Shown here: positions 36,721 to 58,691 of the stretch, piece by piece
Layout: each line of letters begins with the position of its first letter
How positions within the stretch are numbered: position 1 is the first letter of the stretch
Assembly (NCBI GenBank): GCA_030539395.1
Contig: JAUNSC010000012.1
Location: 10,390 to 74,389, forward strand
DNA length: 64,000 nt
Source of the DNA: Eubacteriales bacterium
GTDB taxonomy: Bacteria > Bacillota > Clostridia > Lachnospirales > Lachnospiraceae
Direction: 5' to 3'
The notes under the pieces: generated by a model
What the model saw: the letters and a program-made list of their open reading frames with translations, nothing else
Told to the model about the DNA's origin: nothing
Database searches by the model: none
Translations under genes and position numbers: made by a program

Positions 36721-36729
36721 TTTTATCTC

Positions 36730-38769: not shown

Positions 38770-38778
38770 TTTTTTCCT

Positions 38779-40523: not shown

Positions 40524-40540
40524 ATTTTATTCCTCCTGAT

Positions 40541-41719
40541 CTAAGTCAAAAGCTTTTCCATGATCCGCTCTGTAGCATGTCCGTCACACGCCCCCATATA
40601 AGTGTCAAACGTCTTTTCCATCTTTGTCAGGTCATACTCCTTCAACTCTTTCATAACCCCGGAATACAACTCTCTCTCATCTGTTACCAGTGTTCCCGGA
40701 AGGGAATGGTAATCCATATAAAATCCCCGTTTTTTCTCATAAATGTCCAAATCCGGTGCAAATAAAACCAAAGGCCGCCGGAAAATCAAATAATCAAAAA
40801 GTATTGATGAATAATCCGTTATCAGCAAATCGGTTACCACCAGGAGTTCCTCCGCTGTCATCCCTGGTTTTGGCTCATCTTTCGACATAAGATGGGGGTG
40901 AAGGCTCTTGATCAAATAATATCCCTCATCCAGTCTCCCGGCCAGATCATCCACTGCTTCTTCTCCGCATACCCGTGCCATAGCCGCATTTCCCCGAAAT
41001 GTAGGTGCCCAGAGAATCACTTTCTTTCCCTGCGCCTGTGGATATTCTTTTTTAAAACGACTTCTGACATTTTCCAAAAAATCTGTCCGATAATAAAAAT
41101 CTGTCCGGCTAATACCGGACGCCAAAAATCTTTCTTTCGGGAGCTTCATAGCACTGGAAAAATGTGGAACACACCACTTTGAGCTCACAGTAACATAATC
41201 GCAATTTTTTAAAACATTTCCTTTATAATAGGAAGGTATATCTTCCGTTGTATCATAGCCAAACTTTTTCAGAGCACCGCAGGCATGCCACAATTGAATA
41301 ACAGTTGTCTCCGGCCTTTTTTTACAGGATGCTACCGGAAGAAAATTATCACAGATTACCACACACCGCGCATTGGCATATACTTTCATAAAGTGTATCA
41401 TATTTTTCATATTGGCCGGAAAGGAATCTTTTCCATAATCAGAAACCATGATTTCCGTACACATTCCAGCCTTTTTCATCTCTTCATAGAGACATCTCAT
41501 GCTAAAAGGTAATTCAGTATGATGGGCATCCGCAAACAGGACAACATTGCTGTTTATTTCTTTTCGGCAATAAATCCGATAAACTGCCGGCAAAAAAATA
41601 TTTTGCACTCCCATTTTTAAATATTGTTTTATTATAAATTTTATATTCACTATACTACTCCTGCACATCAGTATTCCCACTTTATGCCACGAAATATTTC
41701 CAGATTCCATGAATTGCAT
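40541..41719 (-). CDS. CDP-alditol:polyol-phosphate transferase, TagB/TagF/TarL family (short form, second copy)
   Basis: 392 aa; QLWHACGALKKFGYD, ILWAPTFRGNA and ITDYSSILFDYLIFRRPLVLFAPDLDIYE. The track start overlaps the upstream GT2 by 38 nt, so the real start is probably the internal ATG near 41668 (MCRSSIVNIKF). Confidence 0.85.
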   Translation of the reverse strand: MQFMESGNISWHKVGILMCRSSIVNIKFIIKQYLKMGVQNIFLPAVYRIYCRKEINSNVVLFADAHHTELPFSMRCLYEEMKKAGMCTEIMVSDYGKDSFPANMKNMIHFMKVYANARCVVICDNFLPVASCKKRPETTVIQLWHACGALKKFGYDTTEDIPSYYKGNVLKNCDYVTVSSKWCVPHFSSAMKLPKERFLASGISRTDFYYRTDFLENVRSRFKKEYPQAQGKKVILWAPTFRGNAAMARVCGEEAVDDLAGRLDEGYYLIKSLHPHLMSKDEPKPGMTAEELLVVTDLLITDYSSILFDYLIFRRPLVLFAPDLDIYEKKRGFYMDYHSLPGTLVTDERELYSGVMKELKEYDLTKMEKTFDTYMGACDGHATERIMEKLLT

Positions 41720-42458
41720 AACAACAGAAATACCATATGGACTTTATAATGCCAAAGCCTGCATATCGGTATACCTTAAAAGTCATCCCCGCTGACTTTA
41801 GCTTATTTCCTGATTTTCCCTTCGCGCTCAGCCTATATTTTAACAGAGGTTCATTGATACCGCAAGCCTTTTGATGTTTTTTCAGTATCTCAAGCCACAG
41901 GATATAATCCTCGTGACTGTCTTCATGAACCATCTCATACTGCTTTATAATATCAGATTTAATAAGTACAGACGAGCAATTTATACTGTTATGATGAAGC
42001 AGATTCTGGTAGGTAATGATTTCTTTTACAGGAATCACCTTTCCTGTCGGTTCACCCTCTAAAGTCACCAATTCACGTGCAGTACAGCAAAGGATTGTTT
42101 CCGTTTTCTCAATACATGAAATCTGTTTTTGCAGTTTACCCGGTTCCCACCAGTCATCCGCATCAAGAAAGGCAACATATTCCCCGGAAGCCATTGCAAT
42201 TCCTCTGTTCCGGCTGGCTGCCGCCCCCATATTTTTCTCATTTTTTATATAACAAACAGCGGGGTTATCTTTATACCCCGCTAATTTGTTTTCCAGTCCG
42301 TCCTGGGAGCCATCATCAATTACAATGAGCTCCAAATCCACTTTCTGTGCAAGTACAGAATCTACAGCTTTACAAATTGTACCGGCACAATTATATGCCG
42401 GCATTATAACAGAAACAATCGGTTTGGTCATCAAACTTTCCGCCATCCTGCAAATCAT
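41682..42458 (-). CDS. Family-2 glycosyltransferase (first gene of operon 2)
   Basis: 258 aa; IVSVIMPAYNCAGTICKAVDSVLAQK, VIDDGSQDG, GAAASRNRGI and FLDADD. The predicted TSS is almost on the first ATG, so the true start is likely ATG 42431 (MTKPIVSV). Confidence 0.8.
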   Translation of the reverse strand: MICRMAESLMTKPIVSVIMPAYNCAGTICKAVDSVLAQKVDLELIVIDDGSQDGLENKLAGYKDNPAVCYIKNEKNMGAAASRNRGIAMASGEYVAFLDADDWWEPGKLQKQISCIEKTETILCCTARELVTLEGEPTGKVIPVKEIITYQNLLHHNSINCSSVLIKSDIIKQYEMVHEDSHEDYILWLEILKKHQKACGINEPLLKYRLSAKGKSGNKLKSAGMTFKVYRYAGFGIIKSIWYFCCYAIHGIWKYFVA

Positions 42459-42604: not shown

Positions 42605-44326
42605 ATGCTACAGATAAAAAAGAAATATCTTATTTTATTTACATTTATTTTCAGTTTTATGATGGCCTTACCGATTTCCGCTGCCAACTTTTTCGATTCA
42701 TTTCCAAAGCGTCTTGCCAGGTCTCAACCAGATCATCCGCGTATTCTGATGATTGGCAATAGTCTTACATATACGCATAATATAGATTCCATGCTCAAAA
42801 ATATCTGTCAAAGTAACGCCATTGATGCCGAAGTTCATCGGATTACCAAAGGCGGTCATGCACTATTTGAATGTATGAGCGAAACAGATGCTCTCCATGA
42901 TAGTATTGTAACTGCACTGTCTACACAAAAGTGGGACTATGTTATCCTTCAGGGCCGAGCTGCTGAACCGGTAGAAAATCCCGCTGAAATGCTTGAAGCA
43001 ATTAAATGGTTTGAACCCCAGATCAAATCTGCCGGGGCACAGATGGTTCTTTACATGACCTGGGTTCCGGAAAATTCAGCTAATTTGAACGCTTTCCAAA
43101 GCGCAGTATCTAAAGTGTATTATGAACTTGGCAATCATTTCAATTGCGCTGTTGCTCCTTCTGGTATTGCCTTTGCCAGAGCAAGGGACCTTTACCCTTC
43201 CATTGATTTGCATTATAATAATACAGACCGCAAACACCCCAGTGTAATCGGCAGCTATTTGTCTGCCTGTACCATTTATGCCACACTATTTAACCGAAGC
43301 CCCTACGGCACTGCATACTATCCCGCCGGCAGATCTCCGGCCACTTGCGCACACATGCAGGCCATCGCCGAAGACGTGACTGTAAATATGGATATTTCAA
43401 GTCACGCGAAGTTAAATTTTTCTTCCAGGGGTTATAGTATTAACAAAGGAAAATCCCTTAAATTATCCTACACTCTTAATAGAGGAGCACGTGTTATCGG
43501 CTGGACTTCAGCAAATCAGTCCGTTGCTGCTGTCAGCAGCTCCGGCACAATTAAAGGTGTTTCCAACGGGCGCACAACAATTACTGCGCTTTTAAATAAC
43601 AACACCACCGTCTCATGCGAAGTAATTGTGACTCCTACCAAATTAACAATGGGCATAAACGAAAAATATACATTGGAATTTCCTGGTAAATATACATGGA
43701 CCTCCTCAAAGAGTTCTGTTGCCGGAATCAAGAAAAACATTATTACTGCATCCAAAAAAGGAACCACTGTTCTGACAGGCAGGGATTCCTCCGGCGTTAC
43801 AATAAAAATCTCTGTCACAGTAAAGGGTGCTCCCACAGCTATTAAGGCAGCAAGTTCAAAAACTATCTATATAGGGCGTCAGTCAAAACTTTCTGCTGCT
43901 GTCAAATCCGGCGTAAGCTTCAGTAAACTGACATTTAAATCCAGTAATCCTGGGATAGTCTCGGTTGATAAAAATGGTATACTCACCGGAAAACGTGTCG
44001 GAAAAGCAAAAATAACAATTAAATCTTACAATGGAAAAAAAGCCGTCTGCACAGTACATTGTGTTATTCCTGCTCAAAAAATATGGTTTAAGAATGCCAG
44101 CTCTCCTATTACACTGAAACGCGGAAAAACAAAGACTTTAAAGGTTGGATTTGCCCCGTCCAATACCACAATAAAAACTATAAAGTGGAAATCCAGCAAC
44201 AAAAAAATCGTTTCCGTTTCATCTAAGGGGAAGATAACGGCTCTAAAAAAGGGAACTGCTACTGTTTCAGCCACTACAACAGATGGTACAAAGAAAGTAA
44301 TTAAACTAAAGATTAAAGTTAAATAA
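42605..44326 (+). CDS. Secreted SGNH/GDSL-like hydrolase (putative glycan esterase) with four C-terminal Big_2 Ig-like domains
   Basis: 573 aa with a signal peptide (LILFTFIFSFMMALPISAANF). SGNH block I is RILMIGNSLTY and block V is DRKHPSVIGSYL (D-x-x-H). Four ~80-aa repeats with the Big_2 pattern follow (e.g. LKLSYTL..WTSANQSVAAVSSSGTIKGVSNGRTTITA). Confidence 0.75.
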   Translation: MLQIKKKYLILFTFIFSFMMALPISAANFFDSFPKRLARSQPDHPRILMIGNSLTYTHNIDSMLKNICQSNAIDAEVHRITKGGHALFECMSETDALHDSIVTALSTQKWDYVILQGRAAEPVENPAEMLEAIKWFEPQIKSAGAQMVLYMTWVPENSANLNAFQSAVSKVYYELGNHFNCAVAPSGIAFARARDLYPSIDLHYNNTDRKHPSVIGSYLSACTIYATLFNRSPYGTAYYPAGRSPATCAHMQAIAEDVTVNMDISSHAKLNFSSRGYSINKGKSLKLSYTLNRGARVIGWTSANQSVAAVSSSGTIKGVSNGRTTITALLNNNTTVSCEVIVTPTKLTMGINEKYTLEFPGKYTWTSSKSSVAGIKKNIITASKKGTTVLTGRDSSGVTIKISVTVKGAPTAIKAASSKTIYIGRQSKLSAAVKSGVSFSKLTFKSSNPGIVSVDKNGILTGKRVGKAKITIKSYNGKKAVCTVHCVIPAQKIWFKNASSPITLKRGKTKTLKVGFAPSNTTIKTIKWKSSNKKIVSVSSKGKITALKKGTATVSATTTDGTKKVIKLKIKVK

Positions 44327-44403: not shown

Positions 44404-45351
44404 TCATTTCTGTACTATACAGGTATACTTATCATATTCCTTTTTATTGTAAAAATAGTCTCTATCCTTTCCGGTTATTCCCAGCTGCGAAAACCATTCA
44501 CCCTTAAGCTTCTCCAGCAGTTTTGTTTTAGTTGGTTCAGCCAGAGTATCGTAATTCCACAATGCAAAATGCAAGGCATAATTAATATAGTCCTTCTCTA
44601 CTTCTTCATAGAGTTCCTCGCCAATAAGTCTCTCACGAAGGGCCATTAAAGCGTCATAAAAACACCACCATGAGTTTTCTCTTGTTTTAGATAAAGAATC
44701 TTTTGCATCACGTCTCTGGTGTGCTAACACTTGAGGAAGCACAGAAATTCTTCTTGCCAGGACAACCGCACTAAAGACAAACAGCATATCGTTACTTGTC
44801 CTCTGCTCCTGAAATTTTAACTGATGCTTCTCAACGAAATCCCTGCGATATAGTTTGTCCCATGCCCAACCTACAAAAACTTTGAAAATATTGTCCGTCA
44901 TTTGACGGTGATTGAAAGGCTGATATGGAGGAATCTCCTTTTCCCTTACAACCCAGCTGACCGGCACAAATTTATCATCCTCTGTATGGTATTGGTCAGA
45001 TTTATATACCACAAAATCTGTCTGGTCCTGTTCAGCCAGATTATATGCCTTTTCAAGCATATCTTTTTCAAAAAAATCATCCGAATCCAAAAATGACAAA
45101 TATTTTCCCTGTGCCACAGACATTCCGGTATTTCTTGCTGCACCGGCACCTGCATTCTTCTGGGTAATAACTTTCACTCGTTCATCACTTCGGGCATATT
45201 CCTCCAATATGGAAAGAGACTGGTCTGTTGAACTGTCATTTACACAAATTATCTCTATCTCACGCAATGTCTGCTGCACAATGCTGTCCATACACTGCCG
45301 CAGATACTTCTCCACATTGTATACCGGAACAATTACTGATACCTTTATCAT
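44404..45351 (-). CDS. Family-2 glycosyltransferase
   Basis: 315 aa; KVSVIVPVYNVEKYLRQCMDSIVQQT, VNDSSTDQS, GAGAARNTG and FLDSDD. Confidence 0.8.
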   Translation of the reverse strand: MIKVSVIVPVYNVEKYLRQCMDSIVQQTLREIEIICVNDSSTDQSLSILEEYARSDERVKVITQKNAGAGAARNTGMSVAQGKYLSFLDSDDFFEKDMLEKAYNLAEQDQTDFVVYKSDQYHTEDDKFVPVSWVVREKEIPPYQPFNHRQMTDNIFKVFVGWAWDKLYRRDFVEKHQLKFQEQRTSNDMLFVFSAVVLARRISVLPQVLAHQRRDAKDSLSKTRENSWWCFYDALMALRERLIGEELYEEVEKDYINYALHFALWNYDTLAEPTKTKLLEKLKGEWFSQLGITGKDRDYFYNKKEYDKYTCIVQK

Positions 45352-45373
45352 TCTGTCTCCTTAACTTCTATCA

Positions 45374-46519
45374 CTATTTCAGTATTTTCTTTAATGCTTT
45401 TTTTATTGCAATCGGAATAAACATAATGATTCTTCCAACTTTGAAAGTTGTAGAGTTTTCAAGCTCCTTCACTCGTTTTTCCGCCTTCTCCAATTTTTTT
45501 TCACAGCTCTGCATTTTCTTAGAGATATCTGCTCCATATAAGCAATATTTTAAATAATAATCACCTGGCTGCTTCATCATAAATGCCAGTTTTTCCTGTT
45601 CCAGTTTTGTAAACAGGCTCATATCCAGTTCTCCCAGATCATTGCTGCGTCTGAACTCCGCTGCAATCCGTTCTACATACTCACGTTTAAAAACATCTGA
45701 TATTCGAGTAATCGTAAACATATAATTGTGGTATCTCTTTAAATTGTAATAGCCTTTGAACTTCTCCCATAACTCCTTATTCTCTTTCTGCATAAAAATA
45801 TCCCTGATGTGATCATATTCAATATTCATGCAGTATACTTTTTCTTTACTGTTTACTGAAGAATTCGGATTATCTCTTCTGTTCATATAATAGGGCTTGT
45901 CTAAAAACATCGCCCTCTTTGCATAAATAAATGTCTGCCAGAAGAAACCGTTATCCTGAAAAGATGCCCCTGGCGTCTCATTATGGCGAATGTGGTTCTC
46001 TTCAATATATTTCCTGCGGTAAATACCGCTCCAGGTATTCATAATAAACTTTGTGAGAATCGGCATTTCACTGGGATTATATACCTGATTATAATAAAGG
46101 CCCGATTTGTCAAGATGATTATATACCTGATTCATGTTACCATTCTCTTCTGTTGTAAACCTGTAGAAATCGGCTTTTACAAAATCAAGGTCATTTTCGG
46201 ATGCCACTTTATACAGATCTTCATACATATTCAGAGGAACAAAGTCATCCGGCTCTACAATACCGATATATTCCCCTGTGGCACGGTCCAATCCCATATT
46301 CATGGCCTTTCCGTAGCCGCCATTTTCCTTATCTATAATAATAATCCTGGCATCATTTTCTGCATATTTCTGAAGGATACTTAATGATGAATCTTTTGAT
46401 CCATCATTAATACAGATAATCTCTATATCCTGTAATGTCTGGCGCTGCACACTCTCCATACACTGATCCAGATACATTTCAACATTATAAGTAGGTATAA
46501 TAATCGATACTTTTGGCAT
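45374..46519 (-). CDS. Family-2 glycosyltransferase with C-terminal coiled-coil and amphipathic tail
   Basis: 381 aa; KVSIIIPTYNVEMYLDQCMESVQRQT, INDGSKDSS, GYGKAMNMG and VEPDD. The C-terminus is EKKLEKAEKRVKELENSTTFKVGRIIMFIPIAIKKALKKILK. Confidence 0.8.
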   Translation of the reverse strand: MPKVSIIIPTYNVEMYLDQCMESVQRQTLQDIEIICINDGSKDSSLSILQKYAENDARIIIIDKENGGYGKAMNMGLDRATGEYIGIVEPDDFVPLNMYEDLYKVASENDLDFVKADFYRFTTEENGNMNQVYNHLDKSGLYYNQVYNPSEMPILTKFIMNTWSGIYRRKYIEENHIRHNETPGASFQDNGFFWQTFIYAKRAMFLDKPYYMNRRDNPNSSVNSKEKVYCMNIEYDHIRDIFMQKENKELWEKFKGYYNLKRYHNYMFTITRISDVFKREYVERIAAEFRRSNDLGELDMSLFTKLEQEKLAFMMKQPGDYYLKYCLYGADISKKMQSCEKKLEKAEKRVKELENSTTFKVGRIIMFIPIAIKKALKKILK

Positions 46520-46570
46520 ATTTCCTCCCGTTAATACAAATTTTCCTCTTGATTAATCAACTTCTATTTT

Positions 46571-47809
46571 TTAGTCTTTCCCGTACAAATCCCTTGTGTA
46601 TACTTTGTCTTTCACATCATCCAATACCTTGTCATATCTGTTGGCAACAATCACATCACATTCTTTTTTAAAGTTCTCAAGATTATTGACAATCCTGCTT
46701 CCAAAAAAAGTACTTCCGTCTTTCAGCGACGGCTCGAAGATGATCACATCCGCACCTTTTGCTTTTACACGTTTCATTATCCCCTGTATGCTGCTCTGCC
46801 GGAAATTGTCACTGTTCGCTTTCATTGTCAGCCGGTAAATGCCCACAGTAACTGCATGCTCGTTTATATTATTATAATCATTATTCTCTGCGTAGCTATA
46901 ATACCCTGCTTTCTGCAGCACACGATCAGCAATAAAATCTTTTCTCGTGCGGTTTGCTTCTACAATTGCCTCAATCAGATTTTCCGGCACATCTTTATAG
47001 TTTGCCAGCAGCTGCTTTGTATCTTTCGGCAGACAATATCCGCCATACCCGAAAGACGGATTATTATAATGGGTTCCAATCCGGGGATCCAACCCTATCC
47101 CTTCAATAATCTGCGCCGTATTTAATCCTCGTACTTCCGCATACGTATCAAGCTCGTTAAAATAACTGACACGCAAAGCGAGGTACGTATTGGCAAACAG
47201 CTTGACAGCCTCCGCCTCCGTCAGACCGACGAAAAGAACCGGAATATCTTCTTTGATGGCCCCCTCCTCTAAGAGAGCTGCAAATTCATGTGCCCTTTGT
47301 ACCATTTTCTCATCATTCGATGGTACTCCCACAATAATACGGCTGGGATACAGATTATCATACAATGCTCTGCCTTCACGTAAAAATTCCGGACTGAAGA
47401 GCAGATTTGTACATCCGTACTTCTCTCTTACTCCCACTGTATATCCAACCGGTATCGTTGATTTAATGACAATCACCGCATCCGGATTACAGCGAATAAC
47501 CTGCTCAATTACACTTTCCACCGATGAAGTATCAAAATAATTTTTTACAGAATCATAGTTTGTAGGTGTAGCAATAATAACAAAATCCGCCTTACTGTAT
47601 GCAGCATCTCCATCAAGAGTAGCTGTAAGATTTAATTCATGTGTTGCGAGATATTCTTCAATTTCTTTATCTGCAATAGGCGATACTCCGCTGTTAATCT
47701 TGTTAACTTTTTCCTCTACAACATCAACCGCTGTAACCTCATGATTCTGCGCTAAAAGTACACTGAGACTAAGTCCGACATAGCCGGTTCCTGCAACTGC
47801 AATTTTCAT
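46571..47809 (-). CDS. ugd: UDP-glucose 6-dehydrogenase
   Basis: 412 aa; [22 protein letters not shown] and the catalytic-Cys region [10 protein letters not shown]. It overlaps the upstream GT2 by 4 nt. Confidence 0.9.
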
Positions 47810-48999
47810 TTTCCCATCTCCTTACTCTTTACGTCTTTTATTACGTACAGTTTTCTTGCTATCCATCCCAGAGGGTTTTTTATATTGTTTATTTTATTAT
47901 TTAAACGCCTGTTTTCTTTTTTCAGAGCATTCACACTGTCTCTCAATTCTCTGTTCTTAATTTTTAAATCACGTATATGTTCCTGCTTTTTCTTTTTCTC
48001 ATCCGCGCCATGCATGAGCACATAATCCAGAGGCGCCATTGTCATCATTCTTCGATATGACAACTGCGCATCCTCGGAATAATAATAATCTTCTCTATCA
48101 ATAATACCCAGCTTTTCAAACCCTTCATTCCTCAAATACTCATACATTTTTATAAACGCATTTCCATCTGTATTCTGATGGAGGGCGTACAAAAGGCTCT
48201 GCAGCGCCCTGTTTTCAAAACTCTGCCGAATCTGCAAATTGTCTAATCCTCCTGCCCTCTCCAAACTTTCATGAACAGCCATAAAAGCATCCATTGCGCA
48301 AAAAGGTGTCTCAACTTGTGTTCCCGTTAAACTGTCCTTATTGTTTACTCTATATGTTACTAATCTTTCTCTGACCACCGCTATCTTCGTTGCCAGATAA
48401 AATCCCATCATACCGAAATATACGTCATTTGCCCGGACACGATCTTCAAAGCGCAGATTATTTTCCTTTATAAATGAACTGCGATATAGCTTATTCCAGG
48501 GCACATTCGTTGCAATATTAAAAAGATATGCCGGATGGGATTCTTTTGAATATTCGTCAGCACCTTGCAAAAATTTCTCCAAAAGATACATTTCTGCCCG
48601 AATCAGATCTCCGGTAGGAACATCTAATCTATTTGCATTGCAGACACATATATCTGCGTTCGATGAAGTAATTTTTTCATATAACTTCTCCAACAAATTT
48701 CTTTCAAATCTGTCATCCGCATCCCAAAATGCCAAATATTCCCCTTTTGCATTTTCAATACCGTTATTTCTGGCTACACCTGCATGTTGATTTTCCTGGC
48801 ATATAAGTTGTATTCGTGAATCTTTGCGCATATACTCCCGCACAATTTCAGCTGAACAATCTGTAGAGCCATCATCCACACAAATAATCTCAATTTCCCG
48901 AAGAGTCTGCCCAATAGCATCTTCCAGTGTGTCCCGCAAAAAATCCTGAGCATTATAAATCGGAATTACAACTGTTACTTTAATCTCACTATTGTTCAT
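47806..48999 (-). CDS. Family-2 glycosyltransferase with C-terminal coiled-coil tail
   Basis: 397 aa; [44 protein letters not shown] and FWDADD. The C-terminus is [47 protein letters not shown]. Confidence 0.8.
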
Positions 49000-49156
49000 T
49001 TTTTCTTCCTGCCGTTTCTGATTTTTTTCATTATAACACGACTTTCAAAATCTATTCCACCCATTTAACTACATTTGTTTTCTTTGCCAAAAACTTTCCT
49101 TCCTGTACTGGATCCCCATGGCAATCTTTGTCCGGACAATATGGTTATCCGGCACA

Positions 49157-50671
49157 TCATAATTTCTCTTCTGCCCGCATCTCCCACAGCTTATACAGGG
49201 CCTTCCTGTCCAGCTTTTTCATACGGTTTCTTGGAAGTTCACTGATGATGATGTATTTCTGAGGCAATTTATACCGCTCCATCTTTCCGCCAAGAAATTT
49301 ACTAAATTCCTCTTCGTTATATCCACTGCTTTCCGGAACAACATACAGTACCGGGACCTGACCGAGAATTCCCTGGGGATCGTCCACACCAATACATGCG
49401 CACTCCACAGCGCCGTCATATTCCTGTGCAATATTTTCAACTTCAATAGGAGATACTTTTTCACCGCCCACATTGATAATATCGTCTGCACGCCCCATCA
49501 TATATACAAATCCATCCTCGTCCATATACACGATATCGTTTGTGTAGAGCCATCCATCTATCAGTGCCTGTGATGTTGCTTCCGGCATATTATAATATCC
49601 TGCCATCTGCATGGGTCCCTGAAGGATCATTCTGCCCGCCGTATCAATATCTTTTGCCTGTATTTCTTTTCCTTCCGAATCGACTACTTTCAATTTTGCT
49701 ATAGAAATCGGTCTTCCAAGAGCAGTAAATTTATCCGGATATTTGGATACCTCAAGAAAAATAACACCGCCGGTTTCTGTAGATCCCCATGTATTGACAA
49801 TATGTGTGTCCGGCAGCACTTTTGTCAGCTTTTTCTTCATGTCATAGCCAAGAGATCCTGCTCCCACTTCTATATAGCGCAGTTTTCCCATAACTTCCGA
49901 AAACCTGTCCTGCATCTTACGATAGATCATTTCCATGGATGCCGGAACAATTACCATTCCACTGCACTCAAAGTCATTGATATTTTTCTCAATCTCCTTA
50001 ATAAAAGCAAAACCATTCTGCAAAACAACAGTTGCCCCAACATATAAAAGAGTCCGAAGAACACGAAGTCCAAGAGAATGATTGAGCGGCAGAGGAATCA
50101 ATTCACAGTCTGCAGACTGTATACCCACGCCATCCCGATTGTTATGCGTAATTGCATAAATATTCCCAACACTCAGCATCGTTCCCTTAGGTTTTCCTGT
50201 CGTTCCGGTAGTAAACAGAATTTCTGCTACTTCATCATCATTTCTGTCAACAGCACTTATTTCCTGATGCATCTCTTCCTTTTCTACCGCAGCGGTATAC
50301 AATTCTTTCAGAGAATGGACGCGGATTTCCTCTGACAGAATTTTTCCATCTGCCAGCACAGTTTTTGGCTGTGTATATTCATATACATCCAAAATATTTT
50401 CTATTTTAGCCGCTTTCTCAATCGGAACAGACACTGCCCCCAGATACTGTATTGCCAGATATCCCACTATATAATCCGGCCTTGATACACCGGAAAGCAT
50501 AACGAGATCTCCTTTTTGGACGTCACAGCTTTCTCTCAGCAAATATGCCATAGATTTCATCCGCCTGCACAACTGAGAATAGGTAATTCTGTTTTTCTTA
50601 AATCCGACAGCAAGCTTGTCCGGTGTTTCTATGGCATGCGCCATTACCGCCTTTACAATTGTCTGATACAT
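49157..50671 (-). CDS. Class I adenylate-forming enzyme (AMP-binding; DltA-sized acyl/aminoacyl ligase)
   Basis: 504 aa; AMP-binding core motifs ILFTTGTTGKPKG (A3), WGSTETGG (A5), YTNDIVYMDEDGF (A7), GRADDIINVGGEKV (A8) and the terminal-Lys region LPRNRMKKLDRK (A10). The substrate cannot be read from sequence. Confidence 0.75.
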   Translation of the reverse strand: MYQTIVKAVMAHAIETPDKLAVGFKKNRITYSQLCRRMKSMAYLLRESCDVQKGDLVMLSGVSRPDYIVGYLAIQYLGAVSVPIEKAAKIENILDVYEYTQPKTVLADGKILSEEIRVHSLKELYTAAVEKEEMHQEISAVDRNDDEVAEILFTTGTTGKPKGTMLSVGNIYAITHNNRDGVGIQSADCELIPLPLNHSLGLRVLRTLLYVGATVVLQNGFAFIKEIEKNINDFECSGMVIVPASMEMIYRKMQDRFSEVMGKLRYIEVGAGSLGYDMKKKLTKVLPDTHIVNTWGSTETGGVIFLEVSKYPDKFTALGRPISIAKLKVVDSEGKEIQAKDIDTAGRMILQGPMQMAGYYNMPEATSQALIDGWLYTNDIVYMDEDGFVYMMGRADDIINVGGEKVSPIEVENIAQEYDGAVECACIGVDDPQGILGQVPVLYVVPESSGYNEEEFSKFLGGKMERYKLPQKYIIISELPRNRMKKLDRKALYKLWEMRAEEKL

Positions 50672-50680
50672 AATATTCTC

Positions 50681-52261
50681 CTAATAATTCATATAAGTAA
50701 ATCCGGTATTGCTGTAACCGGCTCCCCACACACCAAATATAATAACTGCAAAAAAAGCCAGATAATATATCGTCCATCTTACTACAGCATTATTACGGGC
50801 AATCATTTCACGCACCGACCCTCTTTCCTGCAGCATACTTACACACCACAATACAAAGATTCCAGCCATTGCAACCCAGAAATTTTTCCGGTTCAATCCG
50901 TAATTATATAGAGATTCATCAAAGAGTATCCATACATCAAATTTCGCAGCAATCTGTTTCAGAATATCTAAACTTGTCCTGATATGTCCCGGTACAGTCA
51001 GAAGACGCCCGAAGGAAAACAAAAGAAATGTTCTCACCATCTGGAAAATGTGCCAGCTCCTTGCCTCAGTATTGATTTTTAGCAGGCTTGTCATCTTATT
51101 GATCTCCGGCGCAAAAACACTTGGAACAATCGTCAGAACCGCCCAGTAAATTCCCCAGATAATGTAATTGTATCCCGTACCGTGCCATAATCCCGACAAT
51201 GTCCAGACACACACCAACGGAACAATTACCATAAGACTTTTAGATGCGCGGCTGCCAAAAGTCTTCTTTATCTTTCGTGAAAGCTTCAACAGAGCTGGAG
51301 AAATTGCAACGGGCATGTAAACATAGTTCTTAAAAAATTCGCCCAATGTAGCATGCCATCTGCGCCAGAATTCACCCGCACTTCTTGAAAAGAATGGATG
51401 TTCAAAGTTCTGTTCCAGTTCAATTCCAAGCATCTGAGAAATACCTCTGGCCATATCCATGCAGCCCGAGAAATCACAATATAGCTCAACGCTCGCAAAC
51501 ATAGCTGCTATCACAAATATAAGACTCGATTCCTGATCATAACAGTTCAAAAAAACCGAATCCACAAAAATTGACAATCTGTCAGCAATCACCAGCTTTT
51601 TAAAGTATCCCCAAAGCGCAAGCTGAATTCCAAAGCAGAAATTTGTATAGTCAAATGCATGGCCTTCGTTCAATTGATCAGCAAGATCCCTGTGCCTTGA
51701 TATCGGCCCCTGAAGAATCTTTGGAAAAAACAGCACAAACAACAAAAATTTTAAAAAGTTATGCTCCGCTTTATCTTTTTTCCAATATACATCCGCAAGA
51801 TAACTTAACATGGAAAAAGTATAATAAGATATTCCAAGAGGTACCAGCACCTGCATCCAGACAGGCAATTCTTCTCCCGTCAGCCGACTGATTCCATCCA
51901 AAATATTTTGTCCAATTTTACTGTATGCCAGCACTATAACAAGAACAAAACCTGTAAATATCAATATCCTGTGGCATTTCTTCTTTGCCTGCTGCTTACA
52001 TTTTTTCTTCTCTGCCGCATTCATATCTGAGTTTTTAATCTTCTCACTTTGACGGGCATATATTTTCTCCATCCATCTGGCCGACAGATAAACCAACAGT
52101 GAAGAGAACAGTACTACTGCAAATGCTTTCCATCCCCATGACAGATAGAAAAGTATACTTGCCAGCAGCAAAACTACCCAGCGTCCCTTTAATGGCATAA
52201 TATAGTACAATAACACCACTGCCAGAATAAAAACAAAAAAACTTCCTGATAAAAATGTCAT
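50681..52261 (-). CDS. MBOAT-family membrane-bound O-acyltransferase (DltB/AlgI/PatA-like)
   Basis: 526 aa, polytopic. FSMLSYLADVY, FWRRWHATLGEFF and LSGLWHGTGYNYIIWG (the conserved MBOAT His) are typical AlgI/DltB motifs. Confidence 0.85.
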   Translation of the reverse strand: MTFLSGSFFVFILAVVLLYYIMPLKGRWVVLLLASILFYLSWGWKAFAVVLFSSLLVYLSARWMEKIYARQSEKIKNSDMNAAEKKKCKQQAKKKCHRILIFTGFVLVIVLAYSKIGQNILDGISRLTGEELPVWMQVLVPLGISYYTFSMLSYLADVYWKKDKAEHNFLKFLLFVLFFPKILQGPISRHRDLADQLNEGHAFDYTNFCFGIQLALWGYFKKLVIADRLSIFVDSVFLNCYDQESSLIFVIAAMFASVELYCDFSGCMDMARGISQMLGIELEQNFEHPFFSRSAGEFWRRWHATLGEFFKNYVYMPVAISPALLKLSRKIKKTFGSRASKSLMVIVPLVCVWTLSGLWHGTGYNYIIWGIYWAVLTIVPSVFAPEINKMTSLLKINTEARSWHIFQMVRTFLLFSFGRLLTVPGHIRTSLDILKQIAAKFDVWILFDESLYNYGLNRKNFWVAMAGIFVLWCVSMLQERGSVREMIARNNAVVRWTIYYLAFFAVIIFGVWGAGYSNTGFTYMNY

Positions 52262-52305
52262 TTTATGTATCTCCTATAACAACGTTGGATTATTCTCCCG
52301 TTCTC

Positions 52306-53838
52306 CTATTTTTTAGGTGCTGGATTTGGTTCAGCGCAGGTATCAAAATATACACTGCTTAATACTTCATCAGCTTCCTTATCATAAACCACAATATTAA
52401 TCCCCCGGCCATCTTTCATCCACTCGGTTTCATCAATTATAAGACTGGCATCTACTCCTGACATCTGCCCCCCGCTATACAATTGATATTTTTTTCCATT
52501 ATTAAGTCCGGCCTCAGCCGACACCTTTTTCCGACTGAGTTTCTGAGTCACAACTTCCCCATCATCAATAACAGCCAGAAAACTGTACCTGAATTTCCCT
52601 TCCAGATTTTTTGTAATTCCCAGCTGCTGCAAAACATCTCTTCCCTCTGCATCCAGTTGATTTGTCATATCATCACTGCCAGCCATAAATATCGCATAGC
52701 CTTCTTTATCAAGAGACAGAATCGTCTGCATATATTGTTTAAAGTCTTCTGCAGCTGCAAAATCTTTCTTAACTTCCATTGCTTTCACCATCTGCAGATA
52801 GCGTTCCTCATTCTTTTCAAACTCTTCATAATTTTCATCCAAACGGCAGTCTGGGAGATCATAATTACTCTTTAAGTAATCCCCCACATAACCCATCCAT
52901 TTTCTTGCTCCCGACAAATTCATATGTACATTATCGGCGTTATCCGTTGTCCAATCTATTCCTATCTGTTTTTCAAGGAGATTGATATCCAGATACGGTA
53001 TCCCGTATTCATCTGCAATTTCCCGCACGGCATTATATTGCGCCCACTTCCATTCAATGAGGCCATTTCCCCAAAGTAATACTAAGTCTATATCCTTCTC
53101 CTTACACAGCTCAATGATTTTTATCAGATATTTCTTATTACATGCAGGTATAACGGCTTTTTGGCCGCTATTCTCCACATCATACACTTCCTTTTTTCGT
53201 TCCTTTGGAGTAATTGTCAAAAGCAGGCGGTTTCCACCCAAATATTCTTTCGGAAGTTCATGGGTAAATTCTTCTTCTGTAATGCTTTCCCAGTAAGAAT
53301 GTCCGTAATACATATCACAAAAGTATTCCCAAAAATTAATTTCCGGATAGAATTCTTCTTTTACTGCAAGAAATGCCTTATATCGGGTCTTTATACTCTT
53401 TATATCATCCAGTGTGAAATGCAAATATGTATTTTCGTCTCTTCGTATAGCGTCCGAAATACGTTCTTTTGAATAGAAAAGAGATTTCACATCAAAAAGA
53501 AGCACTTCAGGTTTTTGATATTTCAGCGTCTCTTCTATTGCATAATAGGAAAGACATGTAGATTGCTGAGGCGCTCCTATAGAAGTCGATGCAATTCCAT
53601 ATTCATGATAGAGCTCCGCTGAATTTGTATTTGCAATAGCAATACTTGTCCCCGCAATCAGAACATCATAGTAATCTTTTTCTTTATAAATATTAGTTAA
53701 TCCATCACTATACCAACGTGCATCTTTCGGTTTATGCACAACGTATTCTACTGCTTTCCATAAAAAAGCCGCTATCAGGACGAACAGAATCATCCTGACA
53801 GCATATCCCACTCTCTTTTTTACCATTGTTCCTCCCAA
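52306..53838 (-). CDS. N-terminally anchored extracytoplasmic SGNH-like protein (DltD/AlgJ/PatB-analogous) with an extra C-terminal domain
   Basis: 510 aa with one N-terminal TM (MILFVLIAAFLWKAV). The candidate block I is VLIAGTSIA and block V is DNVHMNLSGARKW (D-x-x-H-x-N-x-x-G). It sits directly upstream of the MBOAT gene. The fold assignment is tentative. Confidence 0.55.
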   Translation of the reverse strand: MGGTMVKKRVGYAVRMILFVLIAAFLWKAVEYVVHKPKDARWYSDGLTNIYKEKDYYDVLIAGTSIAIANTNSAELYHEYGIASTSIGAPQQSTCLSYYAIEETLKYQKPEVLLFDVKSLFYSKERISDAIRRDENTYLHFTLDDIKSIKTRYKAFLAVKEEFYPEINFWEYFCDMYYGHSYWESITEEEFTHELPKEYLGGNRLLLTITPKERKKEVYDVENSGQKAVIPACNKKYLIKIIELCKEKDIDLVLLWGNGLIEWKWAQYNAVREIADEYGIPYLDINLLEKQIGIDWTTDNADNVHMNLSGARKWMGYVGDYLKSNYDLPDCRLDENYEEFEKNEERYLQMVKAMEVKKDFAAAEDFKQYMQTILSLDKEGYAIFMAGSDDMTNQLDAEGRDVLQQLGITKNLEGKFRYSFLAVIDDGEVVTQKLSRKKVSAEAGLNNGKKYQLYSGGQMSGVDASLIIDETEWMKDGRGINIVVYDKEADEVLSSVYFDTCAEPNPAPKK

Positions 53839-53859: not shown

Positions 53860-55263
53860 TTATTTTTTTTCCTCTTCTTTTGTTGCCGCGGTCACCTGCC
53901 AGCTTTCCACGCCTTCCGTATTTTCCTTCTGGAAAAGAATCTTGAAGGTCAGCATCAAAAGCTTGATATCCATGATCACGGAATAATTTTCTATATAGGT
54001 CAGATCCAGCTTCAGTTTATCATATGGGGTCGTATTATATTTCCCATATACCTGAGCATATCCGGTCAGTCCTGCTTTTACCTTTAATCTGTAATCAAAC
54101 TCCGGTATCTCTTTTGCATACTGCTGTGCAATCTCCGGGCGCTCCGGACGGGGACCTACCAGCGACATATCGCCTTTTAAAATATTAAATATCTGCGGCA
54201 GCTCATCAAAATGAATGTTTCGTATTACTTTCCCCACCGGTGTGATCCTGTCGTCTTCCTTCCTGGCAAGACGCGCACCGTCTTTTTCAGATTCCACTTT
54301 CATGCTGCGGAATTTGTATATATAGAAAATGCGCTTATCTATTGTAAGTCTTTCCTGTTTATAAAAGACAGGTCCTCCATCGTATGCTTTGATCAATAGC
54401 GCTATGATCAGCATAAACGGAGATGCCAGAATAAGTCCCAGCAGCGAGAAGATAATGTCCATAGCACGTTTTACAAACAACTGCTCTGCTGTCAGCCTTC
54501 TGTTTCGGGACAGCATGAGTGTCGTATCAAACAAATGGATTCCGTCAGAACTCATCAGCATAATATCAGACAGTTTGGGTATACTATAACAACGGATATC
54601 CTGTTCAAAACAATATTTCAAAAATAAATTTCTCTCATGGGAAGGGATATCCCCTAAAATAACTGCCGGATACTCTCTGATTTTTTCTTTGATTACTTCC
54701 TCTCCCCAGGAAAGGTGGATCATTTCACAGATATTATATTTATCTTCCCGGGATGAAATTTTCCGTATCAGATCTCTGGGATTTTTGTCGCCATAAACCA
54801 GCAGCATTCTCCTTGGCGGATAAATGCGGGCATAAATCCAGCGCATAAAAACAACCCAGATAACGACAATAATAACATCTATTACCGTCATATTACAAAG
54901 GGGTATCAGATTTGTTCCGAATCTCCATCGGCCGACCAGACTGAGCTGAAGATACGTAATAATATTAACGCATACGATGGATAATATCTGTGAATACACT
55001 ACTTCGAATACACGAAGATACCCCACCTTAAATCCTCCATATATTTTATAAAAGAAAAACAGCATCAGTGCATACTGACCGATAATAACCCAGTTGCCTC
55101 TGACAAATGATCTGCCGATCGCCCCTGTCCTTGCGTAACAGTTATACCATACATATGCAAAAATTGCTGTTTCCAGCGTCAAAATCAATACAGAGGATAA
55201 AAACATAATAATTCTCTTATACTGTTCTCTTTTTTCCATATTGGTTACCTCTATTTTACTCAT
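53860..55263 (-). CDS. Polyprenyl-phosphate glycosylphosphotransferase (second large PGT initiating transferase)
   Basis: 467 aa with N-terminal TMs. The C-terminal domain carries KFRSM, DELPQIFNILKGDMSLVGPRPERP and KAGLTGYAQV. Confidence 0.85.
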   Translation of the reverse strand: MSKIEVTNMEKREQYKRIIMFLSSVLILTLETAIFAYVWYNCYARTGAIGRSFVRGNWVIIGQYALMLFFFYKIYGGFKVGYLRVFEVVYSQILSIVCVNIITYLQLSLVGRWRFGTNLIPLCNMTVIDVIIVVIWVVFMRWIYARIYPPRRMLLVYGDKNPRDLIRKISSREDKYNICEMIHLSWGEEVIKEKIREYPAVILGDIPSHERNLFLKYCFEQDIRCYSIPKLSDIMLMSSDGIHLFDTTLMLSRNRRLTAEQLFVKRAMDIIFSLLGLILASPFMLIIALLIKAYDGGPVFYKQERLTIDKRIFYIYKFRSMKVESEKDGARLARKEDDRITPVGKVIRNIHFDELPQIFNILKGDMSLVGPRPERPEIAQQYAKEIPEFDYRLKVKAGLTGYAQVYGKYNTTPYDKLKLDLTYIENYSVIMDIKLLMLTFKILFQKENTEGVESWQVTAATKEEEKK

Positions 55264-55337: not shown

Positions 55338-56126
55338 TCACTCTACGCGATAAATCGTATGTCTCGCCGTTCTTCCAACAACACTGCAATCCACCGCAAG
55401 CATCTGTTCATCCATATCATAGCTTGTCGCAATGACAATATAGTCTGTCTTTGAACGCCGCAGCATCTTTCTGATCTTTTTATCCGGCACATCTAAGGTT
55501 CCCCCGTTCACCAGAGTCAGCAGACAATGCTGCCGGTTCCTTCTGGCGCTTTTCAAGCCCAACACATCATCATAAAGATATGTCTGCCTGGTAATTGCAT
55601 TTTGAATAGTAGGGTCCTGGATACGCAAAGAAAGGACCAGACTAAAATCACATGCCACTCTGGGATGTTCTTTTTCTTTATCTGCACTGATCAGATTACA
55701 GATTTCTTCTGCCTCATCATGCAGATACTGCACCTGACCGGGCATTTTGAAACTGCCTTTTTCCAGATAGGGAACTCCTGCCGCAGCAACGATCACAACT
55801 GCAGCGATCACGACAGCAATTTTGCGAACCATCGTTTTCTGTAATACAATCACATCCACCACCGCATATGCCAGCATCGGAATTGCAGGTATCATCCACA
55901 AAAAACGATAATAGGTCTCCGTTCCCATCACTGCGCCGACCAACCGAAACACTATATCATTGAAAACAATCAGACAGGCTGCACCAATCGTCAGCAGCGC
56001 ACTCCGCCGGTTTCTCTGGTCAGCCCGCACAAGCAGCCAGGCCACTGCTGCCAGTATCAGTGGAAGAAACCAGGTATCCCCGTTATACAACTGAAAAACC
56101 TCAAAAACATTTGTTACATTATTCAT
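55338..56126 (-). CDS. Membrane protein of unknown function (4 TM + ~150-aa soluble C-terminal domain)
   Basis: 262 aa; hydrophobic segments in the first ~115 aa, then a soluble domain. It is in the same reading frame as the upstream ORF (see findings). Confidence 0.5.
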   Translation of the reverse strand: MNNVTNVFEVFQLYNGDTWFLPLILAAVAWLLVRADQRNRRSALLTIGAACLIVFNDIVFRLVGAVMGTETYYRFLWMIPAIPMLAYAVVDVIVLQKTMVRKIAVVIAAVVIVAAAGVPYLEKGSFKMPGQVQYLHDEAEEICNLISADKEKEHPRVACDFSLVLSLRIQDPTIQNAITRQTYLYDDVLGLKSARRNRQHCLLTLVNGGTLDVPDKKIRKMLRRSKTDYIVIATSYDMDEQMLAVDCSVVGRTARHTIYRVE

Positions 56127-56129
56127 ATA

Positions 56130-57230
56130 TCAAATTCCTATTCTGAATATTTTCATTTTGTAAAGCAGATAGAGTATCAGATACAGTGTATCAGGAAGCA
56201 TACACAAAATATAAAACCCTGCAAACTTCCAGTTCTTTTCACGGAAAATTACCGGCAGCAGCATCAGTGTAATCAATGCAGGTGCCGTGATCAATGCACT
56301 CATGGAAATGGCTACACTCCCGAATGCTCCCGCAAAGAGCATCACCTTTACCTCGCGTTTTGTACTGTCACGCCATACCATCAGACACAGCAGAAACAGA
56401 AACGGCAAAATCAGATTTGCACAATATCCTTTTGCCTCCAGCGCACGGTTTAAGAGAAAGTCCGATGTAGTATAAATAGATTGATAGTAAAAATTCAGGA
56501 AAATTGCGGCAATTACCATCGCTGCCGAACAGGCCAGTATCTGTGTTTCCGTCAGTTTTTCCTGATAGCGTTTCCCCGAAAACAGGAAATACCCGATTTC
56601 AAATATTACAAGATTGGCCAGCACTGCCAACAGACCACCCTGCACAATTTTTGCATAATAAATAATCTTTACCGGCAAAATCTGGCACCACACTGCCGAA
56701 TGCATGTAAAATGAGGATAACATGTAACGAAAATCCAGAGAATTTTGTATACGGCCGCTCAGTCCATCATATAAATACATATTGTTTCTTGATACACTAT
56801 TTCCAATCGTCCCAACATAAGCAGCAGTATCCCAGCCAAGATAATTATTTGTGATAATATAATACATCTGTACAGCTGCTGCCGCTATCATCACACCATA
56901 TAGCAGCAGTGGTTTTTTTCTTTTCCGCGGAATATCCGTCCGCTGCTTTGCCGCTCTTTTCTCCAGAATCAGCAGGCATACCAGAACTGCTGCAACAGTA
57001 ACGCCCCAAAGCATCGTCAGCGACGACAATGGTTGTTTCAAAAGCATCAGAGGCAATGCTTCTATCTGAAACAGCCCGTGATAGACAAACACGCCTGTCA
57101 GCAGGCACATTCTCCAGCTTAATTTCCCTCCGGTCAAAAGACATATGACTCTCCCAAAACACCAGTATAACAAAAGCAGCAACAGGATTACTGCCATGCA
57201 GATTCCGATTTCCATTTCATATTCTTCCAT
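56130..57230 (-). CDS. Polytopic membrane protein of unknown function (possible polymerase/GT-C-like; unassigned)
   Basis: 366 aa with about 10 hydrophobic segments and a loop reading NNYLGWDTAAYVG. It is the first gene of operon 3. No diagnostic motif recognised. Confidence 0.45.
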   Translation of the reverse strand: MEEYEMEIGICMAVILLLLLLYWCFGRVICLLTGGKLSWRMCLLTGVFVYHGLFQIEALPLMLLKQPLSSLTMLWGVTVAAVLVCLLILEKRAAKQRTDIPRKRKKPLLLYGVMIAAAAVQMYYIITNNYLGWDTAAYVGTIGNSVSRNNMYLYDGLSGRIQNSLDFRYMLSSFYMHSAVWCQILPVKIIYYAKIVQGGLLAVLANLVIFEIGYFLFSGKRYQEKLTETQILACSAAMVIAAIFLNFYYQSIYTTSDFLLNRALEAKGYCANLILPFLFLLCLMVWRDSTKREVKVMLFAGAFGSVAISMSALITAPALITLMLLPVIFREKNWKFAGFYILCMLPDTLYLILYLLYKMKIFRIGI

Positions 57231-57312: not shown

Positions 57313-57344
57313 CTACCCTATTTCAATCAGGAGTGATCATCATC

Positions 57345-58691
57345 ATGAAAAAAAGGAGAATTTTATTTACATTTCTATTCATTTTTTCTCTGTTTTTTAT
57401 GCTGTCATCTACAGCCTTTGCTTACAAAAATCAATGGATTACTACCGGGGATGGTAAGTATTATTATGGAAGCAATGGAAAAAAATATACCGGCGGTCCA
57501 AAGAAAATCAAAACCAATGGCAAGACATACTACTACATATTTGACAGCACCGGCAAATTAGTTACAAACAAAGTCACTTACATAAAAAGTAAGAAAAAAT
57601 ACTACTACAGCCAGTCCAACGGCCGCCTTCTTACATCTGTAAAGACAATAAACGGGAAACTCTATTACGGGACCAGGTATGGCTACCTCAAAACAGGGCT
57701 CCAGAAATGGAAAAACAATTATTATTATTTTCAGCCAAAAGTGGGCTATGCATTGACCGGGACTCTGAAAAAGATAAAAGGCCACACTTACTATTTCACT
57801 GCAAACGGTCAGGCCGCAAAGAATAAAATTGTTACCATTCAAAAAAATAAATACTATTTTGATAAAAACGGGTACCGCCAATATGGCCTGCAGCAAATCG
57901 GGAAATTTTATTATTACTTTAACAAATCGAACGGTAAGATGGTGTATGGCTGGAAAAAGATCAACGGTTCCTATTACTATTTTAATCAGGCGAACAAGGG
58001 ACGTGCACTGCGCGACGGATTCAAAACCCTTGGAACAGGAAGCAGCAAAAAGGTGTATTACTTCAATTCCTACGCACAGCAGACCCGTGGCTGGCTGGTT
58101 CTTGGTACTAAACGCTATTATATGGATCCCGCTAAAAACGGAGCCCGCACTTACGGCAAAAAGAAAATCAATGGAAAAACTTACAATTTTGGCACAAAAG
58201 GATATGTGACCTACACGCCCACAGGGAATTATACGATTCGTGTAAACCGAAAAAAATGTGTTGTTACAATATATGACAATGATATAGCTGTTAAAGCAAT
58301 GACATGTTCAGTCGGCGGACCAGGATTTGATACTCCGACAGGTACTTTCTTTATTCAGACTCATAAAAGATGGTGGTATCTGAATGGACCTTCTGTTGGA
58401 CAGTATTGCAGTCATTTCCTTTCGGAATATCTGTTCCACTCAGTCCCCATGTATGGTACATCCTTTAATCCGTACAATGTGAACTCACGTGATTTTAATA
58501 ATTTGGGCCGCGCAGCATCCGGCGGATGTATTCGTCTCTGTGTGGCAGATGCAAAATGGATTTATGATAATATCCCCATCGGCACCCGGGTTGTGATCAG
58601 TGACAGTGCAGCCACACCTCTCGGCAAACCGGCACTCCCCAAAATGAAGGCCGGCACAATCGGAAAAGATCCGACAGATAAGTGGAGTTAA
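57345..58691 (+). CDS. L,D-transpeptidase (YkuD domain) with N-terminal cell-wall-binding (CW_binding_1-type) repeats
   Basis: The signal peptide is MKKRRILFTFLFIFSLFFMLSSTAFA. About 12 roughly 20-aa repeats follow (GKxYYFxxxGxxxxG). The C-terminus has HSVP..GRAASGGCIRL (the YkuD His/Cys motif). The track starts at GTG 57333, which overlaps the SD AGGAG, so ATG 57345 is preferred. Confidence 0.85.
   Translation: MKKRRILFTFLFIFSLFFMLSSTAFAYKNQWITTGDGKYYYGSNGKKYTGGPKKIKTNGKTYYYIFDSTGKLVTNKVTYIKSKKKYYYSQSNGRLLTSVKTINGKLYYGTRYGYLKTGLQKWKNNYYYFQPKVGYALTGTLKKIKGHTYYFTANGQAAKNKIVTIQKNKYYFDKNGYRQYGLQQIGKFYYYFNKSNGKMVYGWKKINGSYYYFNQANKGRALRDGFKTLGTGSSKKVYYFNSYAQQTRGWLVLGTKRYYMDPAKNGARTYGKKKINGKTYNFGTKGYVTYTPTGNYTIRVNRKKCVVTIYDNDIAVKAMTCSVGGPGFDTPTGTFFIQTHKRWWYLNGPSVGQYCSHFLSEYLFHSVPMYGTSFNPYNVNSRDFNNLGRAASGGCIRLCVADAKWIYDNIPIGTRVVISDSAATPLGKPALPKMKAGTIGKDPTDKWS

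Follow-up and report, generated by a model that had tools for sequence, protein, structure and literature searches.

Pairs formed by an MBOAT with its SGNH partner are the general bacterial route to the acylation of envelope polymers. How is such a pair supplied with its acyl group when an adenylating enzyme is encoded beside it, as in D-alanylation (Dlt) systems, but a carrier protein is not? The question is raised by three consecutive minus-strand genes in a 64-kb stretch of DNA from a Lachnospiraceae bacterium (contig JAUNSC010000012.1); we refer to this whole stretch as the window and count coordinates from its first letter. The genes encode an SGNH-fold, membrane-anchored protein, an MBOAT and a class I adenylate-forming enzyme of the ANL superfamily, called the adenylase below (Table 1). 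An earlier account made from the letters alone, here the sequence-only reading, had described the trio as a Dlt-like unit. Its open reading frames (ORFs) and gap lengths (21, 44, 9 and 157 nt around the trio) match ours exactly, and the unit itself is borne out by Pfam matches, by an AlphaFold2 (AF2) model and by the fold neighbours of that model.

We find that the three genes are the remainder of a larger module, from which a carrier gene and part of a nitroreductase domain have been deleted, and that they have stayed under purifying selection since the carrier was lost. We give roughly even chances to the reading that the trio is a functional, reduced derivative of a four-part envelope-acylation module widespread in Lachnospiraceae, and that it draws on acyl-CoA as its donor.

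The carrier gene has been deleted

The absence of a carrier gene in cis, as claimed by the sequence-only reading, holds for the full 64 kb: none was found by motif regular expression, by tblastn with AcpP, DltC and the carriers of relatives, or by a six-frame search with hmmsearch --max, in which the best match to the carrier profile had an E value of 4.2. The claim that no dltC-like gene adjoins the trio is thus right for the window, but such a gene is present in its near relatives. In three loci (L009-L011), which are collinear with the window by blastn and whose adenylase is 81% identical to that of the window, the genes run in the order polyprenyl-phosphate glycosyl-phosphotransferase (PGT), 505-aa SGNH-like protein, 526-aa MBOAT, 75-aa gene, adenylase::nitroreductase fusion, family 2 glycosyltransferase (GT2) and Ugd. 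The 75-aa gene, between the MBOAT and adenylase genes, encodes a carrier with the motif DDGILDSLTL. PP-binding matches 9 of 9 carriers of the relatives, and the whole length of the carrier profile can be aligned with DltC (8jf2_F and 6bug_A, about 6e-8).

Alignment to L009 by blastn places a first deletion at the MBOAT-adenylase junction, where 9 nt (50672-50680) stand in place of 288 nt that include the carrier gene. A further locus, L008, has the same junction as the window, TAGGAGAATAT[T/G]ATG, in DNA that is about 17% diverged across the region (the adenylase proteins are 89% identical). Because the junction is identical in the two, the carrier deletion predates their split. The missing carrier is a derived state, and the carrier-less layout, which had been taken for the native design, belongs to a deletion derivative of a module with a 75-aa carrier and an adenylase::nitroreductase fusion. 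The adenylase gene now starts 9 nt after the MBOAT gene and has an AGGAG ribosome-binding site (RBS) 6 nt upstream of its ATG, overlapping the MBOAT stop codon.

Carrier searches outside the window were likewise negative. No carrier was found in the 21.5 kb of L008 or in the L014 and L025 loci, which also lack one beside the MBOAT, and among the 120 best carrier clusters listed there was none traceable to the metagenome-assembled genome from which the window comes. A 76-aa ORF near the modules of L025 and L027 was rejected as a carrier candidate; its sequence is unrelated, and carrier tblastn was negative. No further copies of the deletion allele were found in JGI metagenomes by the exact junction pattern.

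Loss of the nitroreductase domain

The second deletion removed part of a domain that is usually fused to the adenylase. Of the 120 closest adenylase homolog clusters (P0003-P0120 among them), 96 have a length of about 680 aa and end in a nitroreductase domain, and this fused form (for example, L009 4423-6462) is the dominant one in gut Lachnospiraceae. The window adenylase is 81-85% identical to the fused proteins P0003 and P0004, nests within the fused clade on the tree, and ends just before the point at which the ancestral nitroreductase domain began. By blastn against L009, the window has lost about 420 nt of this domain. The 157-nt gap that follows the adenylase gene has no ORF, as previously noted, but it is not empty: nucleotide alignment identifies in it the last ~35 codons of the nitroreductase domain (Table 1), blastn aligns the same segment to L009 from 6358 onwards, and tblastn with the nitroreductase domain of P0003 matches the window in two frames (49167-49114 and 49117-49055). 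Different frameshifting indels in the linker bring the adenylase to one and the same TTATGA stop in L008 (11470-11650) and the window (49000-49200). The relics of the nitroreductase domain are opposite in the two loci: L008 has kept its 5' part, the window its 3' part.

On the adenylase tree, the module has survived at least five losses of the nitroreductase domain, which is therefore accessory. Two loci, L031 and L032, keep the carrier and have an adenylase without the nitroreductase domain; given such losses in carrier-keeping loci, loss of the domain is not tied to that of the carrier. The same two loci rule out the idea that the two are always lost together, as would suit a flavin domain acting on a tethered acyl group. 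Comparison of the domain with PDB returned only generic structural-genomics nitroreductases (3ek3, 1.5e-32), which indicate no particular function. Distant fusions (about 40% identity) occur in L076-L078 and L084 (6001-13459) together with several AMP-binding genes and with no MBOAT or carrier gene, in a context that is possibly akin to non-ribosomal peptide synthetase (NRPS) loci.

Conservation of the trio after the carrier was lost

If the pathway had been inactivated when carrier and nitroreductase domain disappeared, the trio would be a decaying relic, with ORFs that are intact by chance or because the loss is recent. In favour of this explanation, one lineage has lost two of the five ancestral functional parts, the nitroreductase remnant is visibly eroding, and copies of the module in other contigs (L024, L091 and L097) are frameshifted and truly decayed. 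The decayed copies indicate, however, that decay is detectable when it occurs, and the trio has a different history. The deletion is older than a divergence of dS about 0.65-0.9 between the window and L008, yet 1,540 trio codons are still open in both. In this comparison, the SGNH protein has a dN/dS of 0.104, the MBOAT one of 0.069 and the adenylase one of 0.095 (dS 0.65-1.9), similar to the flanking genes (0.03-0.12). Moreover, the catalytic motifs are all intact (see below), the deletion preserved a good RBS, and a second carrier-less clade is conserved in the same way. Since the trio is intact in both lineages at dN/dS 0.07-0.10 after the shared deletion, it probably still works without an adjoining carrier, judging its activity from selection and the intact motifs. 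We regard decay as improbable.

We surveyed the layouts in 111 fetched loci, annotated with our own hidden Markov models (HMMs). About 61 loci, namely L009-L011 and about 58 others, combine MBOAT, carrier and adenylase; the adenylase is usually fused to nitroreductase in this full layout, and the SGNH-like gene is either upstream of the MBOAT gene or downstream of the adenylase gene. MBOAT and adenylase without a carrier are found in two lineages, the first comprising the window and L008 and the second, independent of it, comprising L014 and L025-L027, for which dN/dS is 0.06-0.09 with dS saturated. Other loci, among them L013, L029 and L035, have the adenylase alone.

Some loci hold more adenylases than one. 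A second divergent adenylase gene lies between the carrier and fused adenylase genes, or a tandem mini-module of SGNH-like, adenylase and carrier genes is present (L005-L007 8277-9833; L041 4459-5838; L022 9722-12446; L037; L061 9500-11224). These arrangements suggest that more than one acyl group may be handled per locus.

The adenylase is not of the DltA type

The adenylase matches AMP-binding (7e-56) and AMP-binding_C (5e-12) in Pfam and retains the ANL core motifs: TTGTTGKPKG (A3, FTTGTTGKPKG in the protein), NTWGSTE, YTND, GRADDIINVGGEKV and the A10 lysine, K486. Among 120 homologs, motifs A3, A5 and A7, the A8 hinge and the A10 lysine are invariant or nearly so. The A4 region reads LPLNHSLG, in place of the FDxS of DltA-type adenylases, with a His of the acyl-CoA-ligase type and no Asp at or beside the position of Asp235, which binds the alpha-amino group of amino acid substrates; N197, H198 and S199 of this region are nearly or fully invariant in the same homologs. 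In NCBIfam, the top matches are fatty-acid (FadD), MenE-type and other acyl-CoA ligases, all far below their cutoffs, and the DltA model is not among the 25 best matches listed. In PDB, the NRPS A-domain of LgrA (2.7e-51) and FadD5 (5.7e-49) rank well above DltA (7r27, only 5e-26). The A4 region and both rankings confirm the earlier view that the enzyme resembles acyl-CoA ligases more than DltA, and the lack of the alpha-amino-binding Asp, together with best matches to acyl-CoA ligases and an NRPS A-domain, argues that an alpha-amino acid would be an unlikely substrate.

An enzyme with such matches could instead be a housekeeping acyl-CoA synthetase that happens to lie beside an ordinary MBOAT/SGNH pair for O-acetylation from acetyl-CoA. 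The kinds of ligases that top the NCBIfam list would fit, as would the solo copies that adjoin nrdD in some genomes. Every one of those NCBIfam matches is far under its cutoff, however, and about 67 loci with otherwise unrelated surroundings show the adenylase gene in linkage with those for MBOAT, carrier and SGNH protein; in the window, 9 nt lie between adenylase and MBOAT genes. We consider this explanation very improbable. The solo adenylases (L013 9953-11509; L029 6001-7557; L035) are about 64% identical, lack the nitroreductase domain and have no MBOAT or carrier gene nearby; they are placed between nrdD and pseudopilin genes, and one is from an isolate genome, Bacterium 1XD42-54.

The MBOAT and the SGNH-fold ectoprotein

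The MBOAT scores above the Pfam cutoff and has its predicted catalytic His, H360, in the sequence GLWHGTG, which aligns with the catalytic-His region of DltB. Its C terminus reads GFTYMNY, and an FxYxx[FY] ending is common to all 11 relatives examined; in the window, the last residue of the motif is Y rather than the F of FxYxxF. In systems described to date, the acyl group starts out on a phosphopantetheine thioester in the cytoplasm, and the MBOAT His hands it on to the Tyr of a C-terminal FxYxxF motif; this motif is part of the MBOAT itself in PatA-type systems and is carried by DltX in Dlt. The Ser of the SGNH protein is the next to receive the acyl group, with which this protein esterifies the polymer (PMC12148441). 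The FTYMNY ending and GLWHG point to an MBOAT of the PatA type with its own C-terminal acyl-Tyr shuttle.

The case for an SGNH protein initially rested on a sub-threshold Pfam match (GDSL_2, 9e-4), accompanied by an ILEI/FAM3 domain (1.6e-8), and was therefore checked by structure. The AF2 model, built on 48 homologs (pLDDT 91.7), has an N-terminal transmembrane (TM) helix (residues 2-30), an alpha/beta SGNH-fold domain and, at the C terminus, a beta domain. Its PDB neighbours by Foldseek include SGNH hydrolases, DltD (6pfx) and PatB (7tjb); DltD is at rank 3 (E 1.5e-4, TM-score about 0.3). Residues kept in the family alignment are G59-x-S61, H176 and D295/D298-x-x-H301. The helix and fold of the model and the conservation in the alignment describe a membrane-anchored SGNH partner with a Ser-His-Asp triad, the triad being read from the sequence. 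We thus assign the protein as a putative extracytoplasmic acyltransferase, the likely counterpart of DltD and PatB. The FAM3/ILEI fold is a carbohydrate-binding stem domain in POMGnT1. The ATG at 53826 is likely the true start of this gene.

The possibility that the locus is a true D-alanylation system with an unusual gene order also has to be weighed here. DltB (TIGR04091) is the only NCBIfam match of the MBOAT and DltB 6bug its PDB match (1.6e-20), the carrier of the relatives is DltC-like, and DltD is among the top folds of the SGNH protein. Yet the TIGR04091 score is 138 bits, far under the cutoff of 375; the MBOAT bears the Tyr shuttle itself, where Dlt has DltX; the 510-aa protein has no Pfam or NCBIfam match to the DltD family; and the adenylase lacks the alpha-amino-binding Asp and is a poor match to DltA. 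Adenylase type, DltB score, the lack of a separate DltX shuttle and the lack of a cis carrier rule out membership in Dlt, and of all the explanations considered we find this the least credible. Even taken together, a relic, an unrelated adenylase and a true Dlt system are unlikely to account for the trio.

The acyl donor

How might the trio obtain and transfer an acyl group? The full module comprises an ectoprotein with the SGNH fold, an MBOAT of the PatA type, a DltC-like carrier of 75 aa and the adenylase::nitroreductase fusion. In the common ancestor of the window and L008, the carrier gene would have been cleanly excised with the adenylase RBS left in place, and the nitroreductase domain would have been cut off by a frameshift and then eroded. 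The remaining adenylase is predicted to convert a carboxylic acid other than an alpha-amino acid to its acyl-AMP and to pass the acyl group to a phosphopantetheine thiol, which in the absence of a cis carrier would most likely be that of CoA, or else that of a carrier encoded elsewhere. The MBOAT His would then catalyse acyl transfer onto the Tyr in the MBOAT's FTYMNY motif, on the outer side of the membrane, and the SGNH Ser would accept it and esterify a wall glycopolymer, with the FAM3-like domain probably helping to hold the glycan. The likely function is to attach a non-amino carboxylic acid to a wall glycopolymer by O-acylation. A-domains, including DltA, can form acyl-CoA.

The sequence-only reading had held that donor routes were undescribed for MBOAT systems, a statement overtaken by published work: acetyl-CoA is the donor for PatA and D-Ala-S-DltC for DltB, both acting through an acyl-Tyr shuttle (PMC12148441). 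No donor types besides these two, acetyl-CoA from the general pool and D-alanyl-DltC, are known. In the alternative to acyl-CoA, the module works like its four-part relatives and borrows its carrier in trans, from a paralogous module or as an orphan DltC-like acyl carrier protein, so that the MBOAT accepts an acyl-S-carrier.

Several observations weigh against acyl-CoA and speak for a borrowed carrier. About 61 of about 67 MBOAT-linked loci (>90%) keep the carrier beside the adenylase, a family that normally loads a carrier. The carrier family is huge, with >7,000 clusters in these bacteria, and is very abundant in Lachnospiraceae; some loci have a tandem second module with its own carrier (L022, L037 and L061). 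Given the size of the family and loci with two modules (L022, L061), it is plausible that a carrier is encoded elsewhere in the genome. Furthermore, we found no adenylase substitutions that would point to retooling for CoA, since no conserved position is changed in the carrier-less lineages after the loss of the carrier.

Against a carrier in trans, none was found within the 64 kb of the window, the 21.5 kb of L008 or the L014 and L025 loci; the carrier was lost twice independently and solo adenylases exist, both of which suggest that it is dispensable; and PatA-type MBOATs use CoA donors (PMC12148441). On balance we think a borrowed carrier possible but rather unlikely, and we favour acyl-CoA made by the module's own adenylase at the roughly even chances given above.

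Neighbouring genes and the target polymer

The trio was thought to modify the glycan made by its own operon rather than wall teichoic acid. The PGT gene adjoins the trio upstream in the same operon and is syntenic in L008 and in L009-L011. Downstream of the adenylase gene is a GT2-Ugd-GT2-GT2 block, which is present in L009 and not in L008 by blastn and synteny. Beyond it, genes with the content of a ribitol-phosphate teichoic-acid-type operon (two TagF-like genes, TarI/TarJ-like and TagGH-like genes) follow in this Lachnospiraceae-like genome, with a DUF6273 gene next to them (34850-35965). In L002-L004, L008 and L031, too, the module occurs together with Glyphos_transf, IspD and ABC-2 genes.

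Because a teichoic-acid-type operon is directly downstream and the trio persists in L008 without the GT2-Ugd-GT2-GT2 block, the preference for the operon glycan is doubtful, and a teichoic-acid-type or shared backbone polymer would be at least as likely a target as a Ugd-dependent glycan. The acylated polymer may thus be the product of the PGT/GT2 operon, of the adjoining ribitol-phosphate teichoic-acid-type operon, or of both.

A second SGNH-like protein is encoded convergently to the operon, 4.8 kb from the adenylase gene in the window. This secreted DUF4886 protein has GNS and DxxH motifs, and its homolog directly follows the adenylase gene in L002-L004 and L008 (L002 12120-13916; L008 11612-13366). 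By analogy, it may be an esterase partner, like Ape1 beside PatAB, or a second transferase.

At the other end, genes for a DUF6077 membrane protein and a 262-aa protein with multiple TM segments (55338-57230, minus strand) head the operon and are kept in L008. Divergent from them, 57333-58691 (plus strand) encodes a 452-aa protein, whose counterpart in L008 is annotated with choline-binding-type repeats and a YkuD L,D-transpeptidase domain.

Table 1. Coordinates of the trio, of the traces left by the two deletions and of flanking genes in the window
Feature	Position	Strand	Remarks
SGNH-fold membrane-anchored protein	53838-52306	-	510 aa from TTG; NCBI call is 506 aa, from ATG at 53826
MBOAT, predicted PatA/AlgI type	52261-50681	-	526 aa; Pfam MBOAT 1.6e-15
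Deletion junction, MBOAT/adenylase	50672-50680	-	9 nt, GAGAATATT
Class I adenylate-forming enzyme (ANL)	50671-49157	-	504 aa; Pfam AMP-binding and AMP-binding_C
Nitroreductase 3'-end relic	49155-49052	-	Frame differs from adenylase; internal 1-nt deletion
PGT	53860-55263	-	Bac_transf 5e-67; TIGR03025 325 bits, above cutoff
GT2, Ugd, GT2, GT2	44404-48999	-	Pfam; downstream of adenylase
Secreted SGNH-like DUF4886 protein with Big_2 repeats	42605-44326	+	DUF4886 9.6e-9; Big_2 8.5e-31
Teichoic-acid-type genes	35983-42458	-	GT2, Glyphos_transf, IspD/TarI-like, ADH/TarJ-like, Glyphos_transf, ABC-2 permease, ABC ATPase (Pfam)

Relation to known systems

In its full four-part form, the family combines the PatA-type and Dlt designs, and full-text literature searches found no description of its architecture. 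Like Dlt, it has an adenylase, a carrier of 75-80 aa (in the relatives only), an MBOAT and an SGNH ectoprotein predicted to esterify a wall polymer; DltB is the best structural and sequence relative of the MBOAT, and the module is linked to teichoic-acid-type genes. It differs from Dlt in that the SGNH protein shows no sequence relationship to DltD and includes a FAM3-like domain, the ancestral adenylase carries a nitroreductase domain and is not DltA-like, the MBOAT has a fused Tyr shuttle and there is no DltX, and the window has no carrier gene.

Systems of the PatA type (PatA/PatB, AlgI/AlgJ/AlgX, WssH/WssI, PatA1/PatB1; PMC12148441) share with the trio an MBOAT of ~500 aa with a catalytic His and a C-terminal shuttle of the FxYxxF type. 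They also resemble the window in having a separate membrane-anchored SGNH partner and neither carrier nor DltX, and the secreted SGNH protein near the trio recalls Ape1. However, these systems use the general acetyl-CoA pool without a dedicated adenylase, whereas the window has a linked ANL enzyme and an ancestry that depended on a carrier.

For the pairing of adenylase and nitroreductase, there are precedents outside envelope acylation. NRPS A-Ox-PCP modules pair an adenylating domain with a flavin domain. OxzB, a ThiF::nitroreductase fusion, couples an adenylating enzyme to a flavin domain of the nitroreductase superfamily (10.1101/2020.06.11.147165). In the same manner, the ancestral adenylase::nitroreductase and its carrier would pair activation of a carboxylate with flavin redox tailoring of the activated or tethered substrate. 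Unlike those enzymes, the nitroreductase here matches only generic ones and is often lost, and only a relic of it is left in the window.

A more far-reaching reading, which we consider possible but less likely than not, is that a carrier-dependent MBOAT system has switched to acyl-CoA supplied by its own ligase, and that the wider family adds to wall glycopolymers a non-amino acyl group, which is tailored by the nitroreductase in the full version. If this is true, acyl-CoA and acyl-carrier donors would be interchangeable for PatA-type MBOATs; if the carrier is merely borrowed, the window would record an ordinary gene loss inside an uncharacterised family. Gut Lachnospiraceae, in which the family is very common, interact with their host in ways shaped by their surface chemistry. 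With the carrier lost and selection kept, the copy in the window and that of one other lineage offer a testable handle on donor interchange and on the acyl group itself.

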